A stretch of DNA of 64,000 bases from an uncultured Clostridia bacterium (GTDB lineage Bacteria > Bacillota > Clostridia > TANB77 > CAG-508), in the NCBI GenBank assembly GCA_947630445.1, contig CANRHQ010000003.1:11733-75732 (forward strand), written 5' to 3'. Within the stretch, counting starts at the first letter, position 1. The number at the start of each line of letters is the position of its first letter. This document shows positions 9,777 to 40,312 of this stretch, in pieces. The notes under the pieces were generated by a model. The model made no database searches. It was not told where the DNA came from and worked only from the letters and a program-made list of their open reading frames with translations. The translations under genes were made by a program, and so were the position numbers.

Positions 9777-9810
9777 AAGATGTAAATATCTTAAATTTAC
9801 ATCTTTTTTA
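9775..9810. terminator. Bidirectional hairpin terminator between convergent prx and GT2 genes
   Basis: AAAAGATGTAAAT (9775..9787) pairs with ATTTACATCTTTT (9795..9807), with A/T runs on both sides. It overlaps both stop codons. Confidence 0.6.
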
Positions 9811-10483
9811 TTATAATTTTAAAATGTCTAATTCCATCTCGAACTGTTCTTAAATGCGATTTTCCATTTCTTTTATCTTTGTAAAAATTTATTGGAACTT
9901 CTGCCATTTTAATATTTTGTTTTCTTGCTTTTATAATCATTTCTGTTGCTAACTCCATACCTTTTGAATTACATCCGATTTCTAACATTTTTTCTGTATC
10001 AAAACCTCTTAATCCACAGTTAAAGTCTCCTATACTTATATCATATTTTTTTCTAGCTATCCAACTTATTAGAGGTGTTCCTATATATCTATGCAAAAAC
10101 TTCATTGCCCCTTTTTCCATATTTCCTTTGAATCTATTGCCAATTACCAATTGATATCCTTCAAGTAGTTTCTCATATATAGGCAATACTTCTAATAAAT
10201 TATAACTATCATCAGCATCTATCATTATAGTATATTTTCCTTTAGCCAATCTAATTCCTTCTCTTATTGCTACACCATATCCTCTTTCTTCCACAGTTTC
10301 TGTTCTAGCACCTAAACTTTTAGATATTTCCTCTGTATTATCAGTGCTTCCATTATTTATTACTAATATTTCTCCATTTATATTATTTTCTTCTAAAAAT
10401 TTTTTTCCTTTTTCTATACATATTGCTATTGTTTTTTCTTCATTAAGTGCTGGTATTAATATTGTTAAATCTAATTGGTTCAT
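9797..10483 (-). CDS. Family 2 glycosyltransferase (polyprenol-phosphate sugar transferase-like, soluble form)
   Basis: 228 aa. LTILIPALNEE...NNGSTD...DADDS motifs. Overlaps the upstream gene by 4 nt (ATGA-type coupling). Confidence 0.85.
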   Translation of the reverse strand: MNQLDLTILIPALNEEKTIAICIEKGKKFLEENNINGEILVINNGSTDNTEEISKSLGARTETVEERGYGVAIREGIRLAKGKYTIMIDADDSYNLLEVLPIYEKLLEGYQLVIGNRFKGNMEKGAMKFLHRYIGTPLISWIARKKYDISIGDFNCGLRGFDTEKMLEIGCNSKGMELATEMIIKARKQNIKMAEVPINFYKDKRNGKSHLRTVRDGIRHFKIIIKKM

Positions 10484-11820
10484 TTATATTCTCCTTTTTT
10501 ATTATCTTTTTTAAAATTAATTTCCTTTAATAGTAATTTATAATTTAAGCAATCTATAATTATATAAAAAAGTGCTATTATTGTTATAATTTGTTCTCTA
10601 AATGTAAAAAAAGAATGATAATATGAATGACTCACAAGTATTAAATATCTCATATATGGCATAACTGATATAAAAAGCAATATTAAAGAAAACCATTTTT
10701 TTCTTATGTTTTTCCAGTCAATACTTATTATTAAAACAAATATACTTATTAATACAATTTTTAATATATCTGATTTTCTCTTTATAATATTTATTGGATA
10801 TAAATTATGAAAATTCTCATACAATGATCCTATATATAATTCTTTTGTACTTATATATCCTTTTTTTCCATTAATTCTAAATAACAAGTTATCTTTTACA
10901 TAATCTAGTGCATTTATATTTAATATAATTGATGCTAAAAGCCATTTTGTTAGCCACATTGCAACATACGCTATTCCCCATATTACACAACTTTTTATTA
11001 GAAATATAATTTCTTCTTTTATTGTCTTTATTCTTCCTTCTTCTTTTCTAACTAATAATACTAACAACATTGGTACTAAAAATGTTATTAATTCCGTTGT
11101 TAAAAAATCAAAGAAACATGTTAATATTCCTGTAATAAAAAATAGTTTGTATAATAATTGATTTCCCTTTTTTTCTATTTGTATTGCAATTATACTTACA
11201 ATTAACATTATATAAAATGTCCATGAATATTCTAAACAATATGGTACAATTGGAAATGCAATTAATATCATAGAAATAATATATATTATTGCTATTTTTT
11301 TACTTTTTCTTAATAATATAAAGAAAAGTAATATAGCAAGCATCCATAATAAAATTTTATTTAAAAGGTATATTTCTTCTATATTAAAAATTGTTAAAAG
11401 TGGTCTTAAAATTACAATACTTCCATGCCAATATCTTATATATTGTTGATTTGGCTCTTTTTCTTCTTTTATTGATTTTATAAAATCATAGTTTACATCT
11501 GCATAGGATTTTTGATAATATTTATCTACCATTACTGATTCAAGTGGTTTACTTGAATCAATATTATTTATTATATTTAGAATTATTGTGTCTGCATAAT
11601 AATGTACAAATGTATATTCTCTTCTTTTTAAAATCTCTTCCATTCCAGATCTTTTTTCAAAAAATGGTACAGACTCTTTTAAGTTTTCTTGTATAGCACT
11701 TTTGGGAATTAATGATGTAATAATTAATAAAAATAATACTACTAAAACTGTAAATACAAAGTACATTATATATTTTATTATTTCTACTAATGTATTTTTT
11801 ATTTTAATAGCATTGAACAT
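10480..11820 (-). CDS. Polytopic membrane protein (about 10 or more TM helices); possible GT-C-type glycosyltransferase, by context only
   Basis: 446 aa and highly hydrophobic. AAAGGAG RBS. Translationally coupled to the GT2 gene. The function is inferred, not recognised. Confidence 0.7.
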   Translation of the reverse strand: MFNAIKIKNTLVEIIKYIMYFVFTVLVVLFLLIITSLIPKSAIQENLKESVPFFEKRSGMEEILKRREYTFVHYYADTIILNIINNIDSSKPLESVMVDKYYQKSYADVNYDFIKSIKEEKEPNQQYIRYWHGSIVILRPLLTIFNIEEIYLLNKILLWMLAILLFFILLRKSKKIAIIYIISMILIAFPIVPYCLEYSWTFYIMLIVSIIAIQIEKKGNQLLYKLFFITGILTCFFDFLTTELITFLVPMLLVLLVRKEEGRIKTIKEEIIFLIKSCVIWGIAYVAMWLTKWLLASIILNINALDYVKDNLLFRINGKKGYISTKELYIGSLYENFHNLYPINIIKRKSDILKIVLISIFVLIISIDWKNIRKKWFSLILLFISVMPYMRYLILVSHSYYHSFFTFREQIITIIALFYIIIDCLNYKLLLKEINFKKDNKKGEYK

Positions 11821-11873
11821 ATCAAAAATTTCTCCTTTTCTTTATTTTTATTTTAATATTATTTTACAAATTT

Positions 11874-11902
11874 ATTCTAACAATAAAGTATACTATTTGC
11901 AA
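11874..11902 (-). promoter_or_regulatory. Fixed-orientation promoter of the membrane-protein/GT2 operon, paralogous to the promoters inside the three invertible cassettes
   Basis: The minus strand reads ATAAAGTA-TTGCAA-ATAGTATACTTTATTGT-TAGAAT (17-nt spacer with an extended TG). The cassettes carry ATAAAGTA-TTGCAA-TTAGTATATTTTATTGT-TAAAAT. Confidence 0.65.
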
Positions 11903-11922
11903 TACTTTATAAGGAAAATCTT

Positions 11923-12006
11923 TTATGATGTAATAATTAATGAAAATAGTACTATTAAAATTGTAATACAAAATACTTTGCATTTCATTTTAATAGTACT
12001 AAACAT
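11923..12006 (-). repeat. Remnant copy 1 of the 5' end of the 446-aa membrane-protein gene (with RBS remnant)
   Basis: The minus strand reads ATG TTT AGT ACT ATT AAA ATG AAA ... = MFSTIKMKCKVFCITILIVLFSLIITS*. This is homologous to MFNAIKIKNTLVEIIKYIMYFVFTVLVVLFLLIITS of the real gene at 11820. The plus-strand ORF 11702..12010 in the track is its antisense shadow. Confidence 0.75.
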
Positions 12007-12038
12007 ATAAAAAATTCTTCTTTTATTTGTTTTTGCAA

Positions 12039-13190
12039 TTATTCTTCTAATGTTATATTTGAGTCTTCAGAACGAGTTTCATATATTTCTCTTAATTTAG
12101 GACAAGTTCCTTTTAATACTAAATTAGCATCTGGATTAGTAGAAGCATTTTGCAAGCAATCATAATAGTATATACAATCAGATGAATTAATAATTAATTC
12201 TCCAGTAAGACAATAACATTCACAGAAACACATACGCAAATCATCAACAAGCATTGGAATCGTCGGAGCAGTAGTTAATGAAACACAACCGTTAAAAGTA
12301 GAGGTCATCGAAGTAACCGTAGATGGAATCTCAGGTGCAATAACTAAATCTTCACAATTCAAAAATGTGCTACTCATGTTAATAACTTCATACCATTCAT
12401 CCTCTCCATCTACCTTTATATACTGAGGAACTTTTCCTTGTATCTTCCCTTCAACAATATTTGAATTATCATATCCTGGAGACGCACTACAACCAGACAC
12501 CTCATTTAAAGCAAATCCCTTAACAGTACCATCAAACATCAGAATCTTTCGATACCTCCAAAGATCTAAATTAACTGAATTTCCATCTGTTCCTATTCCA
12601 ATATCTCCATTTTCTGGACTTTGACTTGGATGTTTTTTTGCATTTTCTTTAGCTGCCTCCCAGTCTATTTCTGTTGTTGAATCTGATATACTAGTTATAT
12701 ATCCTATTTCTTCCATATTCTCTTTTTTATCATAATATACTAATATATATTCTTCTGTAATTCTTTCACTTGAAAGTTTTACATTTTCTATACTTGCTAC
12801 TTTTGATAATTTATCACTTTCTTCTAACTTATATACATCCTTTGTTCCAGTTCCGTTTCCATATGCTATTGTTTTTCCTAGTAAATTATATATATTTACT
12901 GTATAATCATCATTTACAAATCCTTTTCTTTGTAAATATTCCATTAAATGTTCATTTAAACCTATTGCCTCTTTTTCTACCATATAATTTTGTACTTCTA
13001 TTTGTAATCCTTCATATACTTCTGCATGTGCATTTTTTGTTTTTGCTTCTTTTGAATTTGTTATTATTCCACTATCTCCTGCTAACATTGCAATTGATGT
13101 TCCTGCTAATATTAGCAATACTACAATAGTAACTACTAATGCTATTAGCGTTATACCATTTTGTTTTTCTCTTGTTTCTTTCTCTTTCAT
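12039..13190 (-). CDS. Pilin-like-N-terminus surface/secreted protein with BspA-type leucine-rich repeats (paralog A)
   Basis: 383 aa. N-terminus MKEKETREKQNG-ITLIALVVTIVVLLILAG has a short charged leader ending in G followed by a hydrophobic helix, which is prepilin-like but lacks Glu at +5. C-terminal repeats follow the pattern STF.nC..L..AP.IP..V..M.STFNGC.SLTTAP.IP. AAAGGAGGAACC RBS. Confidence 0.85.
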   Translation of the reverse strand: MKEKETREKQNGITLIALVVTIVVLLILAGTSIAMLAGDSGIITNSKEAKTKNAHAEVYEGLQIEVQNYMVEKEAIGLNEHLMEYLQRKGFVNDDYTVNIYNLLGKTIAYGNGTGTKDVYKLEESDKLSKVASIENVKLSSERITEEYILVYYDKKENMEEIGYITSISDSTTEIDWEAAKENAKKHPSQSPENGDIGIGTDGNSVNLDLWRYRKILMFDGTVKGFALNEVSGCSASPGYDNSNIVEGKIQGKVPQYIKVDGEDEWYEVINMSSTFLNCEDLVIAPEIPSTVTSMTSTFNGCVSLTTAPTIPMLVDDLRMCFCECYCLTGELIINSSDCIYYYDCLQNASTNPDANLVLKGTCPKLREIYETRSEDSNITLEE

Positions 13191-13214
13191 TGGTTCCTCC
13201 TTTATTTGTTTTTT

Positions 13215-13411
13215 CTTAATCTCTATAATTAAAGAAAAATAAAAAAGATGTAAATAACTAAAAATATGTATATTTACATCTTTTCTTGATTTTTAATTTT
13301 CATAATTTTATAAAAATATTTCTAAAAAAATTTTTTTCATAAAGTATTGCAATTAGTATATTTTATTGTTAAAATTATTTTATGAATAAATCTTTAATTA
13401 TAGAGATTAAG
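13215..13411. promoter_or_regulatory. Candidate invertible promoter cassette (inverton) A
   Basis: Perfect 21-bp inverted repeat: CTTAATCTCTATAATTAAAGA at 13215..13235 and its reverse complement at 13391..13411. The 155-bp interior holds a hairpin (13243..13256 / 13271..13284, AAAAGATGTAAATA / TATTTACATCTTTT). It also holds a plus-strand promoter: TTGCAA 13347..13352, 17-nt spacer ending TGT, TAAAAT 13370..13375. The promoter points away from gene A. Confidence 0.7.
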
Positions 13412-13515
13412 GATTTTTTTGTTCTGTAAAATAATAATGTATTTATTTTTATATTCATTTTTTATAATGATATATTTCCTTTTAAATTTTCTTCTATCAT
13501 ACTTTTGCGAATCAA

Positions 13516-13596
13516 TTATGTAATAATTAATAAAAATAGTACTATTAAAATTATAATACAAAATACTTTGCATTTCATTTTAATAGTACTAAAAAT
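13516..13596 (-). repeat. Remnant copy 2 of the 5' end of the membrane-protein gene (start codon mutated to ATT)
   Basis: Near-identical to remnant copy 1: ...AGTACTATTAAAATGAAATGCAAAGTATTTTGTATTATAATTTTAATAGTACTATTTTTATTAATTATTACATAA on the minus strand. Track ORF 13505..13750 is its antisense shadow. Confidence 0.7.
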
Positions 13597-13620
13597 ATTA
13601 AAATTTTTCCTTTTTTTCTA

Positions 13621-14766
13621 TTATTCCTCTAATGTTATATGTGATTCCTCAGAACGAGTTTCATATATATCTTCTAAATTAGGACAAGTTCCTTTCAATA
13701 CTAAATTAGCATCTGGATTAGTAGAAGCATTTCGCAAGCAGCCATCATAACCATACCAACCATCAAGCAACTCAGCCGAATTAATAATTAATTCTCCAGT
13801 AAGATTACTGCATCCATAAAAGCAATAACTCAAATCTCTAACTTGTGTTGGAATCATTGGTGCAGTAGTTAAACTTTTACAGTCATTAAAAGTCGAAGAC
13901 ATGTAAGTAACTGTATCAGGAATATCAGGTGCAATAACTAAATTAGAACAACTATAAAAAGTCGCAAGCATATAAGTAACAACACGCCATTGGTCTTCCC
14001 CAGCTACTTTTATATATTGAGGAACTTTTCCTTGTATTTTCCCATCAACAATATCAGAATTCTGATATGCTGGTTCTGAAAAGCTACCCATACTCGCACA
14101 CAACACAATTGAATTGTCTCCTTCCTTTTGATACTTCCAAAGATCCATATTAACTGGATTTCCATCTGTTCCTATTCCAATATCTCCATTTTCTGAACTT
14201 TGGCTTGGATGTTTTTTTGCATTTTCTATAGCCTTTTCCCAGTCTATTTCTGTTGAATCTGATATACTAGTTATATATCCTATTTCTTCCATATTCTCTT
14301 TTTTATCATAATATACTAATATATATTCTTCTGTAATTCTTTCACTTGAAAGTTTTACATTTTCTATACTTGCTACTTTTGATAATTTATCACTTTCTTC
14401 TAACTTATATACATCCTTTGTTCCACTTCCATTTCCGTATTCTATTGTTTTTCCTAATAAATTATATATATTTACTGTATAATCATCATTTATGAATCCT
14501 TTTCTTTGTAAATATTCCATTAAATGCTCATTTAAACCTCTTGTCTCTTTTTCTACCATATAATTCTGTGTTTCTATCTGTAATACCTCATACACTTCTG
14601 CGTGTGCATTTTTTGTTTTTGCCTCTTTTGAATTTGTTATTATTCCATTATCTCCTGATAACATTGCAATTGATGTTCCCGCTAATATTAATAATACTAC
14701 AATCGTTACTACTAATGCTATTAGCGTTATACCTTTTTGTTTTTCTCTTGTTTTTTCCTCTTTCAT
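13621..14766 (-). CDS. Pilin-like-N-terminus surface/secreted protein with BspA-type leucine-rich repeats (paralog B)
   Basis: 381 aa. The first ~205 aa and the last ~30 aa are nearly identical to paralog A. The central LRR-bearing part has diverged. Same RBS and leader. Confidence 0.85.
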   Translation of the reverse strand: MKEEKTREKQKGITLIALVVTIVVLLILAGTSIAMLSGDNGIITNSKEAKTKNAHAEVYEVLQIETQNYMVEKETRGLNEHLMEYLQRKGFINDDYTVNIYNLLGKTIEYGNGSGTKDVYKLEESDKLSKVASIENVKLSSERITEEYILVYYDKKENMEEIGYITSISDSTEIDWEKAIENAKKHPSQSSENGDIGIGTDGNPVNMDLWKYQKEGDNSIVLCASMGSFSEPAYQNSDIVDGKIQGKVPQYIKVAGEDQWRVVTYMLATFYSCSNLVIAPDIPDTVTYMSSTFNDCKSLTTAPMIPTQVRDLSYCFYGCSNLTGELIINSAELLDGWYGYDGCLRNASTNPDANLVLKGTCPNLEDIYETRSEESHITLEE

Positions 14767-14790: not shown

Positions 14791-14984
14791 CTTAATCTTT
14801 GTAATTAAAGAAAAATAAAAAGATGTAAATAACTTAAATATGTATATTTACATCTTTTTTGATTTTTAATTTTCATAAATTTATAAAAATATTTGTAAAA
14901 AATTTTTCCTCATAAAGTATTGCAATTAGTATATTTTATTGTTAAAATTATTTCATAGAATAATCTTTAATTACAAAGATTAAG
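14791..14984. promoter_or_regulatory. Candidate invertible promoter cassette (inverton) B
   Basis: Perfect 21-bp inverted repeat: CTTAATCTTTGTAATTAAAGA at 14791..14811 and its reverse complement at 14964..14984. Hairpin at 14818..14831 / 14845..14858. Plus-strand promoter: TTGCAA 14920..14925, 17-nt spacer, TAAAAT 14943..14948, pointing away from gene B. Confidence 0.7.
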
Positions 14985-15014
14985 GATTTTTTTCATTTAT
15001 TTTTTATATTAATA

Positions 15015-17762
15015 TTATTCATCTTTAGCAGTATTTAGTTTTAATAATTTTAATATCTCGACTATTACAATTGGTGCTAATATTAGCAATATAATTTCTA
15101 AAATATTTCCCATTGGCAAAACTGGTATACTAAATATATGTCTTAATGCAGGAACAAATAAAATTACACCCATTAGTATAGCTGATACTAATACTGCAAG
15201 AATTAATACGCCGTTTCCCAATATTCCTGTTTTAAATATTGACTTTTTATTATCTCGTATATTAAATACATGAACTAATTCAGAAAAAGCTAATACTGTA
15301 AATGCCATTGTTTGACCAACTTCAACTTTTAATTGTTCAGTTGTTAGTTGTGCCAAATCAGAATTATTAGCTTTTAATAAATCTATTGCATCATTTGGTA
15401 TTGCAAGACCTATTAAAAATGCTATAAGTGTAAGTAAACCTATCATTATACCTTGATATATAATTCTAAATGTTCTTCCTTTTGTAAATATCCCTTCATT
15501 TTTCTTTATAGGTTTTCTATTCATTATATCTTTATTTGCTGGATCAAATGCTAATGCTAATGCTGGGAATGTATCTGTTACTAAATTTATCCATAAAATA
15601 TGAATTGGTAGTAATACTTGTAGCATTGCTACATCTGATATTCCAAAGCATTTTGCAATTATAGGTGCAAATAATGTTGCTAATAATAAAACTACTACTT
15701 CTCCAACATTACAAGAAATTAAAAATTGTATTACTTTTAATATGTTGTCATATATTCTTCTTCCTTCTTCTACTGCTGATACTATTGTTGCAAAGTTATC
15801 ATCTGTTAATATTACATCTGCTGCTTCTTTTGCAACTTCTGTACCAACTTTTCCCATTGCACATCCTATATCAGAAGTTTTTAATGCTGGACTATCATTT
15901 ACTCCATCACCTGTCATTGCAACAATTTCTCCATTTGCTTGCCATGCTTTTACTATACGCACTTTATGTTCAGGTGATACTCTTGCATATACTGAATATT
16001 TTCTTATATCTCTCTTTAATTCCTCATCAGAAATTTTTTCTAATTCTGCTCCAGTTAAAGCCTCACTATCATTTTCTAATATTCCTAACTTCTTTGCTAT
16101 TGCTACTGCTGTAACTTTGTGATCTCCTGTAATCATTACGGTTTTTATTCCTGCTGTTTTACATTTTTCTACTGCTTTTTTAGCTTCTTCTCTTGGAGGA
16201 TCTATCATTCCAACCATTCCAATAAATGTTAAATCTGTTTCAATTGTTTTCATTTCTTGTTTAGTTGGCATATGGTCAATCTCTTTATATGCAAATGCTA
16301 ATACTCTTAATGCTTCTTTTGCCATGTTTTCATTGTTTTCTCTTATTATTTTAGCATATTCATTTAAGTCTTTTTTTACTTCACCATTATATAAATATGA
16401 ATTACATATTCTTAATAATTCATCTACTCCACCTTTTGTATATACTATATATTTTCCATTATTCTCATTAACTGTTGTCATCAATTTTCTTTCAGAATCA
16501 AATGGTACTTCTTCTACTCTTTTATTCTCCTCATATATTTCTTGCTTATATTTCAATTTTAATGCCATATCTACTAATGCTGTTTCTGTTGGGTCTCCTA
16601 CTAATTCTCCATTTTCTAGTAATCTTGTGTCATTACATAACATACAATTATATATCATTTTATCAAATTCTTCTGTTTTTTCTGTCTTGCTTACATCTGT
16701 TGTTTTATTATTGCAAAATATTTTTTCTACTGTCATTTTATTTTGAGTTAATGTTCCTGTTTTATCTGAACATATTACAGTACTACTACCTAAAGTTTCT
16801 ACAGCTGGTAATTTTTTTACAATAGCATTTTTCTTAACCATTTTTTGGACTCCTATAGCTAATACTATTGTTGATACTGCTACTAATCCCTCTGGTATTA
16901 CTGCTACTGCTAAAGATACTGCTGTCATAAACATATCTATTATACCTTTACCTTGTAGCAATCCTATTATAAATATTATTGCACATATTGTTAATGCTGC
17001 AATTCCTAAAGTTTTTCCTAAACTATTTAACCTTTGTTGAAGTGGAGTTTCTTGTTTTTCTGTTTCATTTAACATTCCTGCTATTTTTCCAACTTCTGTA
17101 TTCATTCCTGTTTCAACAACTATTGCCTTTCCTCTACCATATGTAATAAGACTTGATGAAAATAGCATATTGATTCTATCACCAACTCCTACTTCTTTGG
17201 CATTTAATTCTTGTGTTTCTTTTTCTACAGGTACTGATTCTCCAGTTAATGAAGATTCTTGTGCTTTTAAATTTATTGCTTCTATGATTCTTAAATCTGC
17301 TGATACATAATCTCCTGTTTCTATTATAACTAAATCTCCTGGCACTAATTCTCTAGCTGGTATAACTTGTTCTTTTCCATCCCTAATTACTTTTGCAGCA
17401 TGTTCACTCAATTTTTTTAATGCTTCTAATGATTTTTCTGCTTTACTTTCTTGTATAACTCCAATTATTGCATTTAAAAGTACTACTATTAGAATTATTA
17501 CTGTATCTGTTATTCCTTCTCCTTCTGCTACTCCTACTATTCCAGATACTATTGCTGCTATTATTAAAACAATTATTGAAAAATCTTTAAATTGTGCAAT
17601 AAATTTTTGAAATAATGTTTCTTTCTTTTTTTCCTTTAATTCATTTAATCCATATTGTATTTTATTTTCTTCTACCTTATTGCTTTCTAATCCTCTACTT
17701 AAATTTGTAGATAATTCTTGTTCAACTTCCTTAATAGTTTTATTAAACCATTGTTTTTCCAT
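15015..17762 (-). CDS. P-type Ca2+-transporting ATPase (PMCA/SERCA-like, P2 type)
   Basis: 915 aa. Motifs CSDKTGTLTQNKM (phosphorylation site), TGES, MITGDH, TGDGVNDSPALK, and ten TM helices. Confidence 0.9.
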   Translation of the reverse strand: MEKQWFNKTIKEVEQELSTNLSRGLESNKVEENKIQYGLNELKEKKKETLFQKFIAQFKDFSIIVLIIAAIVSGIVGVAEGEGITDTVIILIVVLLNAIIGVIQESKAEKSLEALKKLSEHAAKVIRDGKEQVIPARELVPGDLVIIETGDYVSADLRIIEAINLKAQESSLTGESVPVEKETQELNAKEVGVGDRINMLFSSSLITYGRGKAIVVETGMNTEVGKIAGMLNETEKQETPLQQRLNSLGKTLGIAALTICAIIFIIGLLQGKGIIDMFMTAVSLAVAVIPEGLVAVSTIVLAIGVQKMVKKNAIVKKLPAVETLGSSTVICSDKTGTLTQNKMTVEKIFCNNKTTDVSKTEKTEEFDKMIYNCMLCNDTRLLENGELVGDPTETALVDMALKLKYKQEIYEENKRVEEVPFDSERKLMTTVNENNGKYIVYTKGGVDELLRICNSYLYNGEVKKDLNEYAKIIRENNENMAKEALRVLAFAYKEIDHMPTKQEMKTIETDLTFIGMVGMIDPPREEAKKAVEKCKTAGIKTVMITGDHKVTAVAIAKKLGILENDSEALTGAELEKISDEELKRDIRKYSVYARVSPEHKVRIVKAWQANGEIVAMTGDGVNDSPALKTSDIGCAMGKVGTEVAKEAADVILTDDNFATIVSAVEEGRRIYDNILKVIQFLISCNVGEVVVLLLATLFAPIIAKCFGISDVAMLQVLLPIHILWINLVTDTFPALALAFDPANKDIMNRKPIKKNEGIFTKGRTFRIIYQGIMIGLLTLIAFLIGLAIPNDAIDLLKANNSDLAQLTTEQLKVEVGQTMAFTVLAFSELVHVFNIRDNKKSIFKTGILGNGVLILAVLVSAILMGVILFVPALRHIFSIPVLPMGNILEIILLILAPIVIVEILKLLKLNTAKDE

Positions 17763-18147: not shown

Positions 18148-20469
18148 CTATTCTTCTTTCTTTTTCTTTAAATTTACAACAATTGCATTTTCATTATCAA
18201 ATATAAAATTTGAATCTGTTGTATCTGTTTGGACAGGATTAACTTCCTGTTTTTCATCTGTAAAGTTTACATTTTTTGGATTAAATTTTATTTTTGTTGA
18301 ATCATCTGGTTCATTATTTGTAACACCTGGTGTAAATTTTGTAAAGTTATATATTTTTACAGGTTGTTCTTCTTTATATTTTGCACCTATAAAATCTAGT
18401 TTTGCTTCACCTATATCATATGAACCATAATCATTTTTCAACTTTAATGCTCCTATTTTGAATCCTAAAGTTGCAAGTTTATTTACAGGGAAATATAACT
18501 CCCAATCATATTTTACACCGCCCCATTTTGGATCATAAGAATTAGTTTTGGTATCCAAACTCTGTGAATATATCCATGTCCTTCTCTTATAGAATTCACT
18601 TGACCACCATTCTAGTTCTTCTGTTACTGCATTTCCTAGGAATAATTTATTTGCACAATTTGATAATATTGTATCTTTATATTTTAATTTTGGTGAGTTT
18701 CCTTCTAATTGTGCTAAGTTTTGTGCTGTTATTGTTGTTCCAACTTTATATTTACGATATAGTGTAAATATTGCTTCTGTATCTTTACATATAAAATCTG
18801 GAAATTCATCTATATATAAGAAATGTGGTATTCTACTACTTTCATTTCCTGGTCTTCTTAATACACCCATTTGCATTGAAAGTATAAAGAATAATCCGAA
18901 TGCTTTATGACTAGTTCTTCCTAAATCTCCTCTACGAGTACATACTAATGTTACTTCACCATTTGCTAATGCTTTGTCAAAATCTATATTATTAGTTCTT
19001 TTACAAAGAATTGCCTTAACTCCTGGTAATCTTAATAAATTATCTAGTTGTGATACAGCTAAATATATATATTTCTCTGTATCTGCTTTTCCTGGACCAT
19101 CAGCATAAAAATTCTTTTTGAAATACTCTATTTGCATACTATATTTTTCTGCTAATTCCTCATCATTTCTCATTATTTCGCACATTTTTTCTACTAAGTC
19201 AAAGTTTGTAAGCATTTTTAACATATCTTCTAGATTTGGTAAATTTCCACCATTTATTCTAGGATACATTTCTTTTAACATAATTGTTAAATTTTCTATT
19301 GCTTGAATTATATATTCTTCTCTGTATGAATCCTCTATTTCTGGATGATTATTTACATACATTCCTTTTAATGCTGATGATATTGTTATTGCTATTTTTG
19401 AAGCATCATCATAAACAAATGGATTTAATCCAATTGAATCACTACTTCCTGGATCTATCAAATTATATTTTATATGAAAGTTTTTACAAACATTCATTAT
19501 TTTAGAAGTTGATTCAAAGTCAGGTGCTATTGATGTTATACCTACATTTCTATAAATAAATTCATTTCCAAATGATGATAATATCATTTTATTCATATAA
19601 GCCTTATAAACAGTTTCTTTACCATAAGCTGGTGTAAGCATATTTAAATCAAAATTCTCATTTAGATAATCATTATCATATGGTTTATTTAATGTGGCTA
19701 TACCTGTTTTTAATGCTGTATATCCCATTTCCTTTGCATTTGCTATATAAAATGCTTTCTTTTCAATATCTTTTGCCATCATTGGTTCTAGTACTAAAGT
19801 AGTTTTTCCTGTTCCTGAACCTCCACATACAAATAATGATTGATATCTCTTTTGTTCGAAAAATGTCATTTTTCTACCAGTTTCAAACTCTGTACAAAAT
19901 AACATATCACATGTAAATGGTCCATGTCCTGCTTTAGAATCTGCTAAACTTATTCCTCTATAATCCCATAAAGATCTTTTTGCATCTTTACTATCATTAA
20001 TTTTAAATACAATCCACTTTATTACTGAATAAAATGTCGTTAATGGTAAGTATAGTGCTAATGCTGTAAATGCTGGTCTAATTAATTCTGAAAAGTCTGT
20101 AACTAACTCTGTATATCCAGGCATTGATATTAAAAAGAGCCATGCTGCTTGATTAATCCATTGTACAAACATTGATAATGCTATTACATATAAAGTAACT
20201 ATGTATGTTAAAAATAATGTTATTTTTATATTTTTTGATGAAGCAAATTCTGATGTTGGTGAAAATAAAAATGCAAAAACCGGACATGCAAGTGCTAATG
20301 TGTATCTAATTGGTCCCCAATATGAAACAGATACACCTGTAAACACTAAAAATAACATTTCTACTACTCTATCAACTAATATGTATAATGAAATCAATGT
20401 TAATACATAAGTTGCAAATGTATTTCTGCTAGCATTTAGTTTCTTTAAAAATTTATCTATTATTTTCAT
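18148..20469 (-). CDS. Membrane-anchored VirD4/TraD/TraG-like type IV coupling-protein ATPase (orphan)
   Basis: 773 aa. About 5 N-terminal TM helices, Walker A VCGGSGTGKTTLV, Walker B-like HFLYIDEFPDF, then GTTITAQNLAQLEG. This is the T4CP arrangement hhhhDE...Q..xQL. Confidence 0.7.
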   Translation of the reverse strand: MKIIDKFLKKLNASRNTFATYVLTLISLYILVDRVVEMLFLVFTGVSVSYWGPIRYTLALACPVFAFLFSPTSEFASSKNIKITLFLTYIVTLYVIALSMFVQWINQAAWLFLISMPGYTELVTDFSELIRPAFTALALYLPLTTFYSVIKWIVFKINDSKDAKRSLWDYRGISLADSKAGHGPFTCDMLFCTEFETGRKMTFFEQKRYQSLFVCGGSGTGKTTLVLEPMMAKDIEKKAFYIANAKEMGYTALKTGIATLNKPYDNDYLNENFDLNMLTPAYGKETVYKAYMNKMILSSFGNEFIYRNVGITSIAPDFESTSKIMNVCKNFHIKYNLIDPGSSDSIGLNPFVYDDASKIAITISSALKGMYVNNHPEIEDSYREEYIIQAIENLTIMLKEMYPRINGGNLPNLEDMLKMLTNFDLVEKMCEIMRNDEELAEKYSMQIEYFKKNFYADGPGKADTEKYIYLAVSQLDNLLRLPGVKAILCKRTNNIDFDKALANGEVTLVCTRRGDLGRTSHKAFGLFFILSMQMGVLRRPGNESSRIPHFLYIDEFPDFICKDTEAIFTLYRKYKVGTTITAQNLAQLEGNSPKLKYKDTILSNCANKLFLGNAVTEELEWWSSEFYKRRTWIYSQSLDTKTNSYDPKWGGVKYDWELYFPVNKLATLGFKIGALKLKNDYGSYDIGEAKLDFIGAKYKEEQPVKIYNFTKFTPGVTNNEPDDSTKIKFNPKNVNFTDEKQEVNPVQTDTTDSNFIFDNENAIVVNLKKKKEE

Positions 20470-37348: not shown

Positions 37349-38896
37349 CTACAAGTACAAACCGATACGAAATCCATAGTATTCAGAACAGCTAGAGGGA
37401 TCCTCCTCATCCCACTTATTCGCCGTTAAACCGGCCATTCCCGAACCAACATGACCGTAGTAACCACCTCTAAGGCAAAGTTTAACACCATTTTTGACGT
37501 ATAGTTTTGTCCATTCTTCTACATTTCCTGCTAAATCATATATATTATTTGCTTTGGTATTTGGAAATTGTCCTGTTTTTATTAAATCATCTGTTCCTGA
37601 AAATGTATCATCTTTATAATTCCCCCAACTTGTACTGTCAAATCCTATTTCTTCTATTGTTTTATTTCCTGTTTCATATAACCATCCTAATGTTCTATCC
37701 CATGCTGCTCCTGTTAATAATGAACTTGTTGCATTTGTTCCTACACTTTTTGCATATCCTTCTGCTTTAGTTAATGCTTCTGTTTGTGTAATCCAATTAT
37801 ATACATATTTATTTTTTTGTGTTACTAATGTTCCTTCTTTTGATTCAGTTCTTATTTGATTTGCTAATGAATCTCCTGCTTCATATCTTCCTATATAAAA
37901 TCCTCCATTTTTATTGACACTGGTTTTGTAATTATCTTCTGGGTCTTCGTATTCAGTGAATGAAGTTTTATATTCGTTTTTAAAAATCGCTAAAAATTCT
38001 TCTCGACTCATTCCAGATGAATTTAATAAATCTTCTAATTTCATACCCAATGCTTCATACATACTTTCAACCTGTTTAAGAAGTAATTCATCTGTCATCC
38101 AAAAATTTTGTGCATATAAACTATATACTTCTAATGTTTTACTTGTTTCTCCTTTACTTGTTGTTACTTTTATTTTATATTCTCCATTTATTGTTGGCTC
38201 TATTTCTTTATTATATGTTTTTCCTAGTTGTTCATTATCTTCTGATAATATATCTTCTCCGGATGGGTCTGTTACTACTATACTTGTTATTTCTTCTTTA
38301 CTTTCTACTTTTGCAGTTATCTTTTGATCTTTTTCTACTGGCACCCATACAAATTGATTTCCAACTAACTCTGCATCTACTCCTTTTCCATTGTCCTCTT
38401 CACTATCAGATATTACATATCCCTCATTTATGCTTCCTCCTACATGATAAAATCCTTCTGGTATTGGTGGATTTTCTACTTTTGTTCCTTTTATTGTTAA
38501 ACTTATGCTTACATCAGATTTTTCTGCTTCTTCTACTTTTCCATTTTTATCTATTGTATATACATTACTACTTGGAAATGTTACCTTGAAGTTGTTTCCG
38601 TCTTCTTCTACTGTTATTCTATCATCATATTTTTTTAGTTCATCTTCAAGTTGTTTTCTTGTTACTCCTTGTCCATTATTACCAGCTATTACTGCACTAT
38701 ATGATAATTTTACTTGTTCTTTTTCTTCTCCTATTTTTGTTTCTTCTTTTGCTCTTTGTGATTGCCTTATTATTCCATTATCTCCTGCTAGCATTGATAT
38801 ACTTACTCCTGCTAGTATTAATAAGACTACTATTGTTACTACTAATGCTATTAGCGTTATACCTTTTTGTTTTTCTCTTGTTTCTTTCTTTTTCAT
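37349..38896 (-). CDS. Pilin-like-N-terminus secreted protein with C-terminal FGE/SUMF1-like (formylglycine-generating-enzyme fold) domain (paralog C)
   Basis: 515 aa. The N-terminus MKKKETREKQKG-ITLIALVVTIVVLLILAG is nearly identical to paralogs A and B. C-terminal motifs FYIGRYE, AAWDRTLGWL, NIYDLAGNVEEWT, LRGGYY and YGFRIGLY match the FGE-sulfatase domain pattern. Confidence 0.85.
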   Translation of the reverse strand: MKKKETREKQKGITLIALVVTIVVLLILAGVSISMLAGDNGIIRQSQRAKEETKIGEEKEQVKLSYSAVIAGNNGQGVTRKQLEDELKKYDDRITVEEDGNNFKVTFPSSNVYTIDKNGKVEEAEKSDVSISLTIKGTKVENPPIPEGFYHVGGSINEGYVISDSEEDNGKGVDAELVGNQFVWVPVEKDQKITAKVESKEEITSIVVTDPSGEDILSEDNEQLGKTYNKEIEPTINGEYKIKVTTSKGETSKTLEVYSLYAQNFWMTDELLLKQVESMYEALGMKLEDLLNSSGMSREEFLAIFKNEYKTSFTEYEDPEDNYKTSVNKNGGFYIGRYEAGDSLANQIRTESKEGTLVTQKNKYVYNWITQTEALTKAEGYAKSVGTNATSSLLTGAAWDRTLGWLYETGNKTIEEIGFDSTSWGNYKDDTFSGTDDLIKTGQFPNTKANNIYDLAGNVEEWTKLYVKNGVKLCLRGGYYGHVGSGMAGLTANKWDEEDPSSCSEYYGFRIGLYL

Positions 38897-38917
38897 TGTT
38901 TCCTCCTTTATTTGTTT

Positions 38918-39119
38918 TCCTTAATCTTTGTACCTTAAAGAAAAATAAAAAGATGTAAACAACTTAAATATGTATATTTACATCTTTTTATTGATTTTTA
39001 ATTTTCATTATTTTATAAAAATATTTGTAAAAAAATTTTTTCCATAAAGTATTGCAATTAGTATATTTTATTGTTAAAATTATTTCATAGAATAATCTTT
39101 AAGGTACAAAGATTAAGGA
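38918..39119. promoter_or_regulatory. Candidate invertible promoter cassette (inverton) C
   Basis: Perfect 24-bp inverted repeat: TCCTTAATCTTTGTACCTTAAAGA at 38918..38941 and its reverse complement at 39096..39119. Hairpin at 38948..38961 / 38975..38988. Plus-strand promoter: TTGCAA 39052..39057, 17-nt spacer, TAAAAT 39075..39080, pointing away from gene C. Confidence 0.7.
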
Positions 39120-39184
39120 TTTTTTCACTTGGCAAATCAGAACAAATTAAAAAGAATGTTTCCTGTTGAATACAGAAAACATTC

Positions 39185-40312
39185 TTATTTTTTTAATTCC
39201 TCAAATATTTTTGATAAATATTTCATACTTGTCAAGCACTGTTCTAAAGTATTACCTGTTGCACCAACTTCTATAATAGTTGCTGCTTTTCCAAGATGTT
39301 GATTATATCTTGAATTTCTAACAATCATTGGTTTAAATAACCCTGGATATAATTCATTTGCCTTTTGCTGTACTTCTATTGCAAATTTCAAATTAGATTG
39401 CCAATTAGGATGATATAATCCCCCTCCATTTGTTCCTATAACAAACATTAATTGAGCAGCGACATCATTTCCAATTTTTACACTAGGGTCATAATTACTT
39501 TTACTTCCTATTGCATCTCTATGTAAATCTATAATTATATCACTTGGTGTTGTTTTAAGATCATTTTCTACACTTGTACATGATCTTGTATATGAACCTG
39601 TATATGCTGGATAATCATGATAGTTTTTATCATGTAATACATTAAAACCACCATTAATTAAATAATTTGTTAACTCATCACCAACTCTTGAAACTGTATA
39701 ATTTAAGTCTGTTGTTCTAAAATTACCTGTTTGTTGATATGAGTATTGTTCACTTGGCGTATAACTTTCACATGTATGTGTATGGAAAATTATTATATTT
39801 TCTTTATTTATATTTAATTCATTTTCTAAAATAGAATTATTTATTTCAAATGATGTTTCATTTTTTATTTTCACACCATTTATATCTATATTAAAACTTT
39901 CTGATATAGGATTTTGAGTTACTACTTCTGTAGTTACATTTGTTGATATATTTTCTTGTTTATTCTCTTGTTCACTAATTTCAGAATTTTGCATTTCTTC
40001 TGTTGGTTGAACTTCCTTTTCTTCTACTTTTGCTAATTCTATATCTAATAATTTTGAAATCAAATTAGTTTGACCTTCTTCTTCTCCATCTTCTTTTATT
40101 ACATTATTAGATTTATATAATGAATTATTTATTGCTGGCAATTCTTTGTCTAAATATTTCAACAAATTTTGGGATATATTTATTTGTAATATTTCATTAG
40201 ATTTTATTTTAGGTATTATCTTACTCACTATAAATATAATTATTAATATTGCTAATATTATTGACATTCTTCTAATTGCATCTTTTATATTTATTACTGT
40301 AACATTAAACAT
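39185..40312 (-). CDS. spoIIP: Stage II sporulation protein P
   Basis: 375 aa. N-terminal TM helix, then IIIFHTHTCESYTPSE...DLHRDA...IIEVG, the SpoIIP amidase-like pattern. Confidence 0.85.
   Translation of the reverse strand: MFNVTVINIKDAIRRMSIILAILIIIFIVSKIIPKIKSNEILQINISQNLLKYLDKELPAINNSLYKSNNVIKEDGEEEGQTNLISKLLDIELAKVEEKEVQPTEEMQNSEISEQENKQENISTNVTTEVVTQNPISESFNIDINGVKIKNETSFEINNSILENELNINKENIIIFHTHTCESYTPSEQYSYQQTGNFRTTDLNYTVSRVGDELTNYLINGGFNVLHDKNYHDYPAYTGSYTRSCTSVENDLKTTPSDIIIDLHRDAIGSKSNYDPSVKIGNDVAAQLMFVIGTNGGGLYHPNWQSNLKFAIEVQQKANELYPGLFKPMIVRNSRYNQHLGKAATIIEVGATGNTLEQCLTSMKYLSKIFEELKK

Follow-up and report, generated by a model that had tools for sequence, protein, structure and literature searches.

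Three repeat-bounded cassettes upstream of surface-protein genes

The DNA analyzed here (64 kb, hereafter the window) belongs to the core chromosome of an uncultured gut Clostridia bacterium known from a metagenome-assembled genome, a spore-former with 26% GC, and carries ftsY, hrcA-grpE-dnaK-dnaJ, obg, relA, recJ, recA, spoIIP, yabG, and whiA. Three genes on its minus strand have intact ORFs with a conserved ribosome-binding site (RBS). Gene C (37349..38896) encodes a protein of 515 amino acids, in which a leader and a hydrophobic, pilin-like N-terminus precede an FGE-sulfatase-like C-terminal domain. Gene B (13621..14766; 381 amino acids) has the same leader and N-terminus and continues into a DUF285/BspA-type leucine-rich repeat (LRR) region, while gene A (12039..13190; 383 amino acids) is a tandem paralogue of gene B, to which it is 78% identical. 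A 773-amino acid protein with a TraG-D_C/type IV coupling protein-like domain (18148-20469) stands alone among the housekeeping genes of the window.

Upstream of gene C is an intergenic cassette of 202 bp. Its gene-proximal arm (TCCTTAATCTTTGTACCTTAAAGA; 38918..38941) and its gene-distal arm (39096..39119) enclose 154 nt and are complementary at 24 of 24 positions, as expected from an initial annotation of this DNA that described them as perfect 24-bp repeats. With up to three mismatches allowed, a search of the window recovered the 24-mer at these two sites alone, and 100 shuffles contained none. Between the arms is a hairpin (~38944..38992) with A/U-runs on both sides, resembling a bidirectional intrinsic terminator. 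The hairpin, which had also been annotated, is real when judged against shuffled sequences, as its folding energies were -15.3 kcal/mol on the plus strand and -17.7 kcal/mol on the minus strand (z = -5.7 and -6.5) and none of 200 shuffles was as stable. As currently oriented, the hairpin is immediately upstream of the proximal arm and of the gene C RBS (AAGGAGG; 38902..38908, minus strand). The RBS, which we read from the sequence, is outside the putatively invertible segment and is kept in all three copies of the cassette.

The cassette also contains a sigma-70-like promoter on the plus strand (TTGCAA-17-TAAAAT with an extended TG upstream; 39052..39080) that would fire away from the minus-strand gene, in agreement with the initial annotation. 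Since promoter-like consensus matches in this AT-rich DNA occur at the level of shuffles (30 in the window compared to 27.8 in shuffled sequence of 26% GC, with no enrichment), we gave the consensus score no weight. Hexamers of equal score that point toward gene C are also present inside the cassette, for example upstream of the hairpin (TTAACA-18-AATACT with a TG; 39077..39048). Across the three cassettes, a 43-nt promoter block has one variable column, compared to 17 of 110 in the other interior columns. Beyond the distal arm, a terminator scan detected a bidirectional terminator hairpin in the intergenic region between spoIIP and cassette C (39152..39186; fold z = -3.7 and -5.2).

Cassettes with the same layout and orientation precede genes A and B, which bears out the initial annotation on this point. 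Cassette B (14791..14984) has perfect 21-nt arms at 14791-14811 and 14964-14984 and a predicted promoter at 14920-14948 on the plus strand. Cassette A (13215..13411) likewise has perfect 21-nt arms (13215-13235 and 13391-13411) and a predicted plus-strand promoter (13347-13375). The hairpin is kept in both (fold z = -6.5 in A and -6.0 in B). Thus, A, B, and C are three paralogous copies whose parts, order, and orientation are alike, with arms of 21-24 nt and interiors of 152-155 bp that can be described by the pattern CTTAATCTYTRTA-N(145-175)-TAYARAGATTAAG. A 60-nt stretch is identical between cassettes B and C. In its present orientation, the cassette B promoter aims at the 3′ end of a P-type ATPase gene (15015..17762) at a distance of ~67 nt, and the intervening sequence (14948-15015) contains no terminator. 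In the OFF state, cassette B could therefore give rise to antisense RNA to this ATPase gene.

Nucleotide conservation among the three units begins 7-8 nt beyond the distal arm, spans the cassette, 5′ UTR, and RBS, and ends at about codon 44, which is close to the block of cassette, RBS, and ~40 codons that was first proposed. The copies are almost identical up to about codon 21, after which homology between C and A/B collapses. With a length of ~200 bp, perfect terminal inverted repeats, an internal promoter, and a sharp end to homology at the distal arm, each cassette has the look of a MITE-like mobile element (such as the Correia elements) with an outward promoter that was inserted in front of one gene and then copied along with it. 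However, there are only three copies, all in the same position and orientation at the starts of paralogous genes, and homology does not stop at the proximal arm but continues into the RBS and 44 codons. Moreover, there are no solo arms elsewhere in the window, and no target-site duplication was found at the flanks. The arm pair had no matches in genome and viral contig collections, nor did the promoter core in metagenome contigs, although both patterns recovered the known copies in the window as a control; plasmid and phage collections likewise contained no similarity to the cassette. A MITE-like origin is thus highly improbable.

Mirrored changes in the repeat arms

We compared the arms of the three cassettes. 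Between cassettes, 2-4 of 21-22 arm positions differ and interiors differ by 4.6-7.9%, such that arms and interiors have diverged at about the same rate. Within each cassette, both arms are exact reverse complements (100%), and every change in one arm is mirrored in the other. The cassettes therefore have both an inverted-repeat pair around a short intergenic segment (24/24 arms in cassette C, three copies) and arms maintained as a matched pair, which are two attributes of an inverton. Neutral decay of a duplication would be unable to produce mirrored arm changes, and we regard their concerted evolution as the strongest indication that the cassettes are recombination switches.

All differences between cassettes are confined to the central 5-7 nt of the arms, with the outer CTTAATCT and the inner TTAAAGA invariant. 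The centers read CTCTATA-A in A, CTTTGTA-A in B, and CTTTGTA-CC in C, where length also differs. Such a pattern would be expected if a recombinase bound the invariant portions as half-sites, with a crossover region between them that needs to match only its own partner. In this respect, the arms appear similar in anatomy to tyrosine-recombinase sites with heterospecific spacers.

Mirrored changes could also be selected if the arms paired in RNA or bound one dimeric protein. In such a fixed regulatory region, the arms would be operators that loop the 150-bp segment, or would pair in read-through RNA, and the gene would be transcribed from a gene-facing internal promoter with attenuation at the hairpin. 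The equal-score hexamers at 39077..39048 could provide this promoter, and finding one orientation in all 10 observations described below is as a fixed region would predict. However, the arm differences sit in the center of the site and, in C, alter its length, which is hard to reconcile with one regulator of all three cassettes. Further, with the spoIIP terminator before the distal arm and the hairpin and its U-run before the proximal arm, few cassette C transcripts would contain both arms, and cassette C did not match any Rfam family. In addition, a repeat-less copy of the conserved block (see below) is used in the opposite sense, facing its gene. We consider a fixed regulatory region unlikely.

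Based on the sequence, we think it fairly likely that cassettes A, B, and C are fimS-type invertible promoter switches that were caught in the OFF state, and there is a reasonably good chance that cassette C is, or recently was, such a switch. The cassettes would then probably belong to the well-known class of invertible promoters. Here we infer that the promoter is active and which way it fires, that the segment inverts, what kind of recombinase acts on it, and that the cores are heterospecific. In the proposed mechanism, the arms (21-24 nt) would be brought together by a site-specific recombinase encoded elsewhere in the genome, which would flip the 152-155 bp between them. The anatomy of the arms is suggestive of a tyrosine recombinase, which may be encoded at a remote site like RecV of Clostridioides difficile. 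In the OFF orientation, which is the one sequenced, the promoter would fire away from the gene, with the cassette C transcript running into the spoIIP terminator at 39152-39186, and the internal hairpin before the proximal arm would block read-through into the gene. In the inverted, ON orientation, transcription would pass through the proximal arm into a ~60-nt 5′ UTR with the AAGGAGG RBS and then into the gene, while the hairpin, now at the far end, would insulate the promoter from upstream transcription. For cassette C, the modeled ON-state junction on the spoIIP side reads ...AAAAAATCCTTAATCTTTGTACCTTAAAGA|AAAATAAAAAGATG... The outcome would be phase-variable output of three membrane-anchored, pilin-like surface proteins with differing C-terminal domains, and the differing arm centers would prevent recombination between one cassette and another.

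Cassette orientation, recombinase genes, and a fixed promoter copy

We examined cassette orientation in 4-5 assemblies of one strain, comprising the window and ENA assemblies ERZ27249187, ERZ27249651, and ERZ27249662; using unique neighboring proteins, we retrieved every assembly available for the strain. The strain is 99.94-99.97% identical across ENA metagenome assemblies of one project and is absent from the species-representative genome collection. In addition to the window, cassette C was covered by contigs L007, L008, and L009, cassette B by L006, L011, and L012, and cassette A by L006. All 10 observations showed the same (OFF) orientation (4/4 for C, 4/4 for B, and 2/2 for A), a comparison with little power because a minority orientation would be invisible in these ~4x consensus contigs of a single strain. 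Inversion, as implied by the initial annotation, was thus not observed: formally, one orientation was seen everywhere, an outcome that the annotation itself had named as refuting its reading. Two contigs end within cassette C, at 39070 and 39068. We rejected mixed orientation as the cause, as both ends fall in the 60-nt stretch that is identical to cassette B, indicating that the breaks are repeat-induced and do not stem from inversion.

If the cassettes were former invertons that lost their recombinase, they would be locked relics that are permanently OFF. This possibility accommodates the finding that all three cassettes are OFF in every assembly and that no invertase is encoded in the 64 kb of the window plus 10 kb. 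Yet the arms are still perfect in three copies despite divergence between the copies, and the ORFs are intact with a conserved RBS, when decay would be expected once function was lost (although the set of sequences compared is too shallow to date such a loss). We view locked relics as unlikely.

We searched for recombinase genes near the cassettes. None were detected within 20 kb of any cassette or in the 10 kb beyond the window start, and there was no tyrosine recombinase or small serine invertase among the window ORFs. The sole recombinase in the window is a CcrB/XisF-like large serine recombinase on the minus strand (62898..>64000), which runs off the end. Large serine recombinases normally excise or integrate DNA. 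In three samples, ENA contigs stop within this gene, each at a different point, suggesting a mobile or intervening element that is repeated or only variably present. We considered a tie between this recombinase and one encoded adjacent to the cassette of L066, a locus described below, but their 25% identity over 151 amino acids reflects generic family likeness.

The closest known counterpart of the cassettes is in C. difficile, whose flagellar switch (Cdi4, flgB) consists of a 154-bp invertible segment with 21-bp arms and has been proven experimentally (PMC5386303, PMC5903667). Both Cdi4 and the Cdi1 (cwpV) switch are inverted by the tyrosine recombinase RecV, which is encoded remote from six of the seven C. 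difficile switches (PMC5386303, PMC5903667). Because RecV is remote from most of its switches, the absence of a recombinase near our cassettes is weak counter-evidence. The two systems share a clostridial host, near-identical geometry (154 bp and 21 bp compared to 152-155 bp and 21-24 nt), location upstream of a surface-structure gene, the lack of an adjacent recombinase gene, and several switches (putative ones in our DNA) per genome. However, the arm sequences are unrelated (AAGTTRCTATWTTACAAAAAA and CTTAATCTTTGTAATTAAAGA, respectively), and the flgB and cwpV promoters are outside the switch, with control exerted after initiation by Rho or terminator formation, whereas the predicted A, B, and C promoters are inside. 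Also, inversion and its recombinase are proven for C. difficile, whereas for cassettes A, B, and C they are proposed. A second point of comparison is inverton group 139 of the hCom2 survey, which is dominated by Clostridia, with ~25-nt arms, a ~200-bp interior, orientation shifts tied to surface adhesion, and, nearly always, a tyrosine recombinase within 5 kb (PMC11892184). Gut Clostridia and a similar size are shared with our cassettes, which however have no tyrosine recombinase nearby; an arm like CTTAATCT... was not found in the supplementary text that we searched.

We also identified a copy of the promoter block that lacks the repeats. This sequence (TTGCAA-17-TAGAAT; 11874..11908, minus strand, within the region 11845-11924) faces the gene for a 446-amino acid protein, located ~53-54 nt downstream. 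The initial annotation overlooked this fourth, repeat-less copy at 11874-11908. It precedes a minus-strand operon (9797..11820) encoding the 446-amino acid protein (10480..11820), which has no family match, and a 228-amino acid GT2 polyprenyl-phosphate sugar transferase-like protein (9797..10483). Presumably, the fixed copy drives this putative surface-glycosylation operon. When we aligned the fixed copy to models of cassette B, the score was 155 for the ON state and 83 for the OFF state, and the alignment included a decayed remnant of the proximal arm. The 5′ UTR distance is also similar, at 53 nt for the fixed copy and 60 nt for the modeled ON state. As the repeat-less copy faces its gene, it indicates the direction in which the promoter block would fire. 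Its orientation was the same in 7 of 7 assemblies, and it looks like a "locked-ON" relative beside genes that may be switchable.

The ~1.58-kb unit of the A/B tandem duplication also contains fragments that resemble the 5′ coding part of the 446-amino acid gene. Positions 13466-13556 and 11663-11753 are 80% alike, 11925-11966 resembles 11712-11753, and 11925-12027 is 91% alike to 13515-13617. To judge from these similarities, the region around 11663-13617 appears to have had a complex duplication history near the promoter.

The surface-protein family and its upstream regions

Proteins A, B, and C all start with an 11-residue leader, MK(K/E)(K/E)(E/K)TREKQ(K/N), followed by GITLIALVVTIVVLLILAG. 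In protein C, the leader ends in G12 and is followed by the hydrophobic stretch, but residue +5 is Ala (GITLIAL) rather than the Glu of type IV pilins. The score against the prepilin N-methylation model (PF07963, Pfam N_methyl) was sub-threshold, at 19.7 bits compared to a cutoff of 21.2, and NCBIfam prepilin models did not match the switch-adjacent proteins. Protein C thus has neither the Glu at +5 nor the above-threshold model score that mark a type IV pilin. Ala at +5 after the Gly is found throughout the protein family (window 38864-38845) and is atypical of assembled type IV pilins, which puts processing of the family by prepilin peptidase in question.

The remainder of protein C was assigned at the level of its family. 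Although PF03781 scored below threshold on protein C itself (16.9 bits, with a cutoff of 23.3), it matched 22 of 30 protein C homologues (best E = 7.7e-8), and the family profile of protein C matched SUMF2 (PDB 1y4j; E = 1.9e-4). Going by these profile matches, the C-terminal domain is FGE-sulfatase (SUMF1-like) at the family level, and the initial assignment of an FGE/SUMF1-like domain is upheld, as is that of LRR partner proteins, since A and B belong to the DUF285/BspA-LRR family. An AlphaFold model of protein C (pLDDT 77) contains an N-terminal helix of ~60 residues, a small sheet of four strands, a beta-sandwich, and an alpha/beta domain. The long helix and four strands of this prediction are compatible with a pilin-like fold. 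In a fold search with whole protein C, the central Ig-like sandwich accounted for most of the signal, and no pilin or FGE match was returned.

This architecture resembles that of the modular type IV pilins of Gram-positive bacteria, such as Streptococcus sanguinis PilB and PilC (PMC6497953), which also have a short leader, a Gly followed by a hydrophobic helix of ~20 residues, and a long N-terminal helix and small sheet (predicted for protein C) onto which functional domains are grafted. Unlike PilB and PilC, our proteins have Ala rather than Glu at +5 and a sub-threshold N_methyl score, and we found no pilus machinery genes near the switch genes.

The sequence KGITLIALV(V/I)TI(I/V)VLLILAG...GENGI is a signature of the larger family, as virtually every one of >7,900 homologues of protein C and >7,000 homologues of protein B has the same hydrophobic N-terminus. 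This family of thousands includes members with FGE-like, DUF285/LRR, and other C-terminal domains. What A, B, and C share specifically are the switch, the 5′ UTR, the 11-codon leader, and identity at synonymous sites over the next ~33 codons. Relatives of protein C in other organisms, at 57-58% identity, have no such cassette upstream, and the closest homologues (P0002-P0004; 64-71% identity) have other leaders. One other database protein carries an A/B-type leader, namely P0010, a 573-amino acid protein of the FGE type. A profile search with the N-terminus for leader-sharing genes returned short fragments only, none with a KETREKQ leader. Exact-sequence look-ups for protein C, P0001, P0002, and P0010 returned no record, and a search of genomes for related loci, with protein C as the query, recovered only a 33%-identical relative.

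These data bear on the proposal that switch, leader, and pilin-like N-terminus together form a portable module. Part of it stands: the block of switch, 5′ UTR, and leader joins two unrelated C-terminal families, which supports the idea that switch and leader can precede different passengers. The pilin-like N-terminus, however, is native to thousands of homologues and is no feature special to this genome. The spread of the block would be better explained by homologous recombination anchored in the N-terminal coding sequence, which was already conserved, than by an autonomous portable unit.

To view the family more broadly, we surveyed 57 family loci from other metagenomes with sufficient upstream sequence. 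Upstream repeat pairs with inverton-like geometry were present at 13 of the 57, compared to 5% in the null. At L092, perfect 18-nt arms flank a 160-nt interior with an outward TTGACT-17-TACAAT and a hairpin; an RBS and then a DUF285/LRR gene that shares the N-terminus follow. L066 has arms of 19 nt, and its TTGATA-17-TATAAT also points outward. At both loci the order is distal arm, outward near-consensus promoter, hairpin, proximal arm, and RBS, and the arms are unrelated to those of A, B, and C. In L092, a local 16-bp palindrome followed by a T-run (region 653-687) includes the distal arm as one of its halves, such that the outward promoter would be terminated at once when OFF, the role that the spoIIP terminator would have for cassette C. 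An all-against-all comparison of 85 family loci revealed no flipped segments apart from one contig-end artefact.

Other types of upstream sequence were also recovered. Four independent human-gut contigs (L035 2168-2351, L046 2163-2344, L048 170-353, and L037 30-203) carry another repeat family upstream of family genes, with arms of 27-28 nt (TTTTAATTAAATATATAATTTAATAAAA), an interior of 126-128 nt, and a possible small leader ORF, all in one orientation. A near-consensus promoter lies outside the repeats, and these are not clearly the same kind of switch. Upstream of two 57-58% protein C homologues (L001 4802-4912 and L004 2790-2966), a short leader ORF takes the place of the cassette. These ORFs (MTKLESLEAV... 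and MRKLESIETV...) contain a (CA)10 or (GA)~9 tract and end in ...AMCF, and may mediate slipped-strand phase variation or leader-peptide control.

A wider proposal, which we advance only tentatively, is that this whole family of surface proteins with pilin-like N-termini in gut Clostridia is generally phase-variable through interchangeable 5′ control modules (several inverton arm families and leader ORFs with dinucleotide tracts) that hop by recombination in the N-terminal coding sequence. Cassette-specific cores would then let one remote recombinase flip each switch on its own without scrambling the chromosome.

The promoter of E. coli fimS, like those of the Bacteroides switches, lies within a short inverted-repeat segment whose orientation sets the ON or OFF state of a surface-structure gene. 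Bacteroides genomes contain multiple paralogous switches, and fimB and fimE adjoin fimS. Both fimS and the Bacteroides capsule and fimbrial invertible promoters have been summarized (PMC11868660, PMC10403206). Cassettes A, B, and C are like these systems in having a predicted promoter inside an inverted-repeat segment beside a surface-structure gene and, as in Bacteroides, several paralogous copies. They differ in adding a bidirectional terminator-like hairpin and cassette-specific arm centers and in having no adjacent recombinase. Notable features are the three putative sister switches with matched, cassette-specific arm centers, a cargo of putative promoter plus bidirectional terminator, and predicted control of a very large, uncharacterized surface-protein family.

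If the cassettes do not flip, they are an ordinary duplicated 5′ region. If they do, the lineage would vary at least three surface proteins independently, next to a constitutively promoted glycosylation operon, which would parallel, in Clostridia, the combinatorial surface variation of Bacteroides. The three sister cassettes would then offer a naturally occurring case of heterospecific recombination sites, and their switching would provide a regulatory logic for a protein family that is huge and abundant in gut metagenomes yet unstudied.
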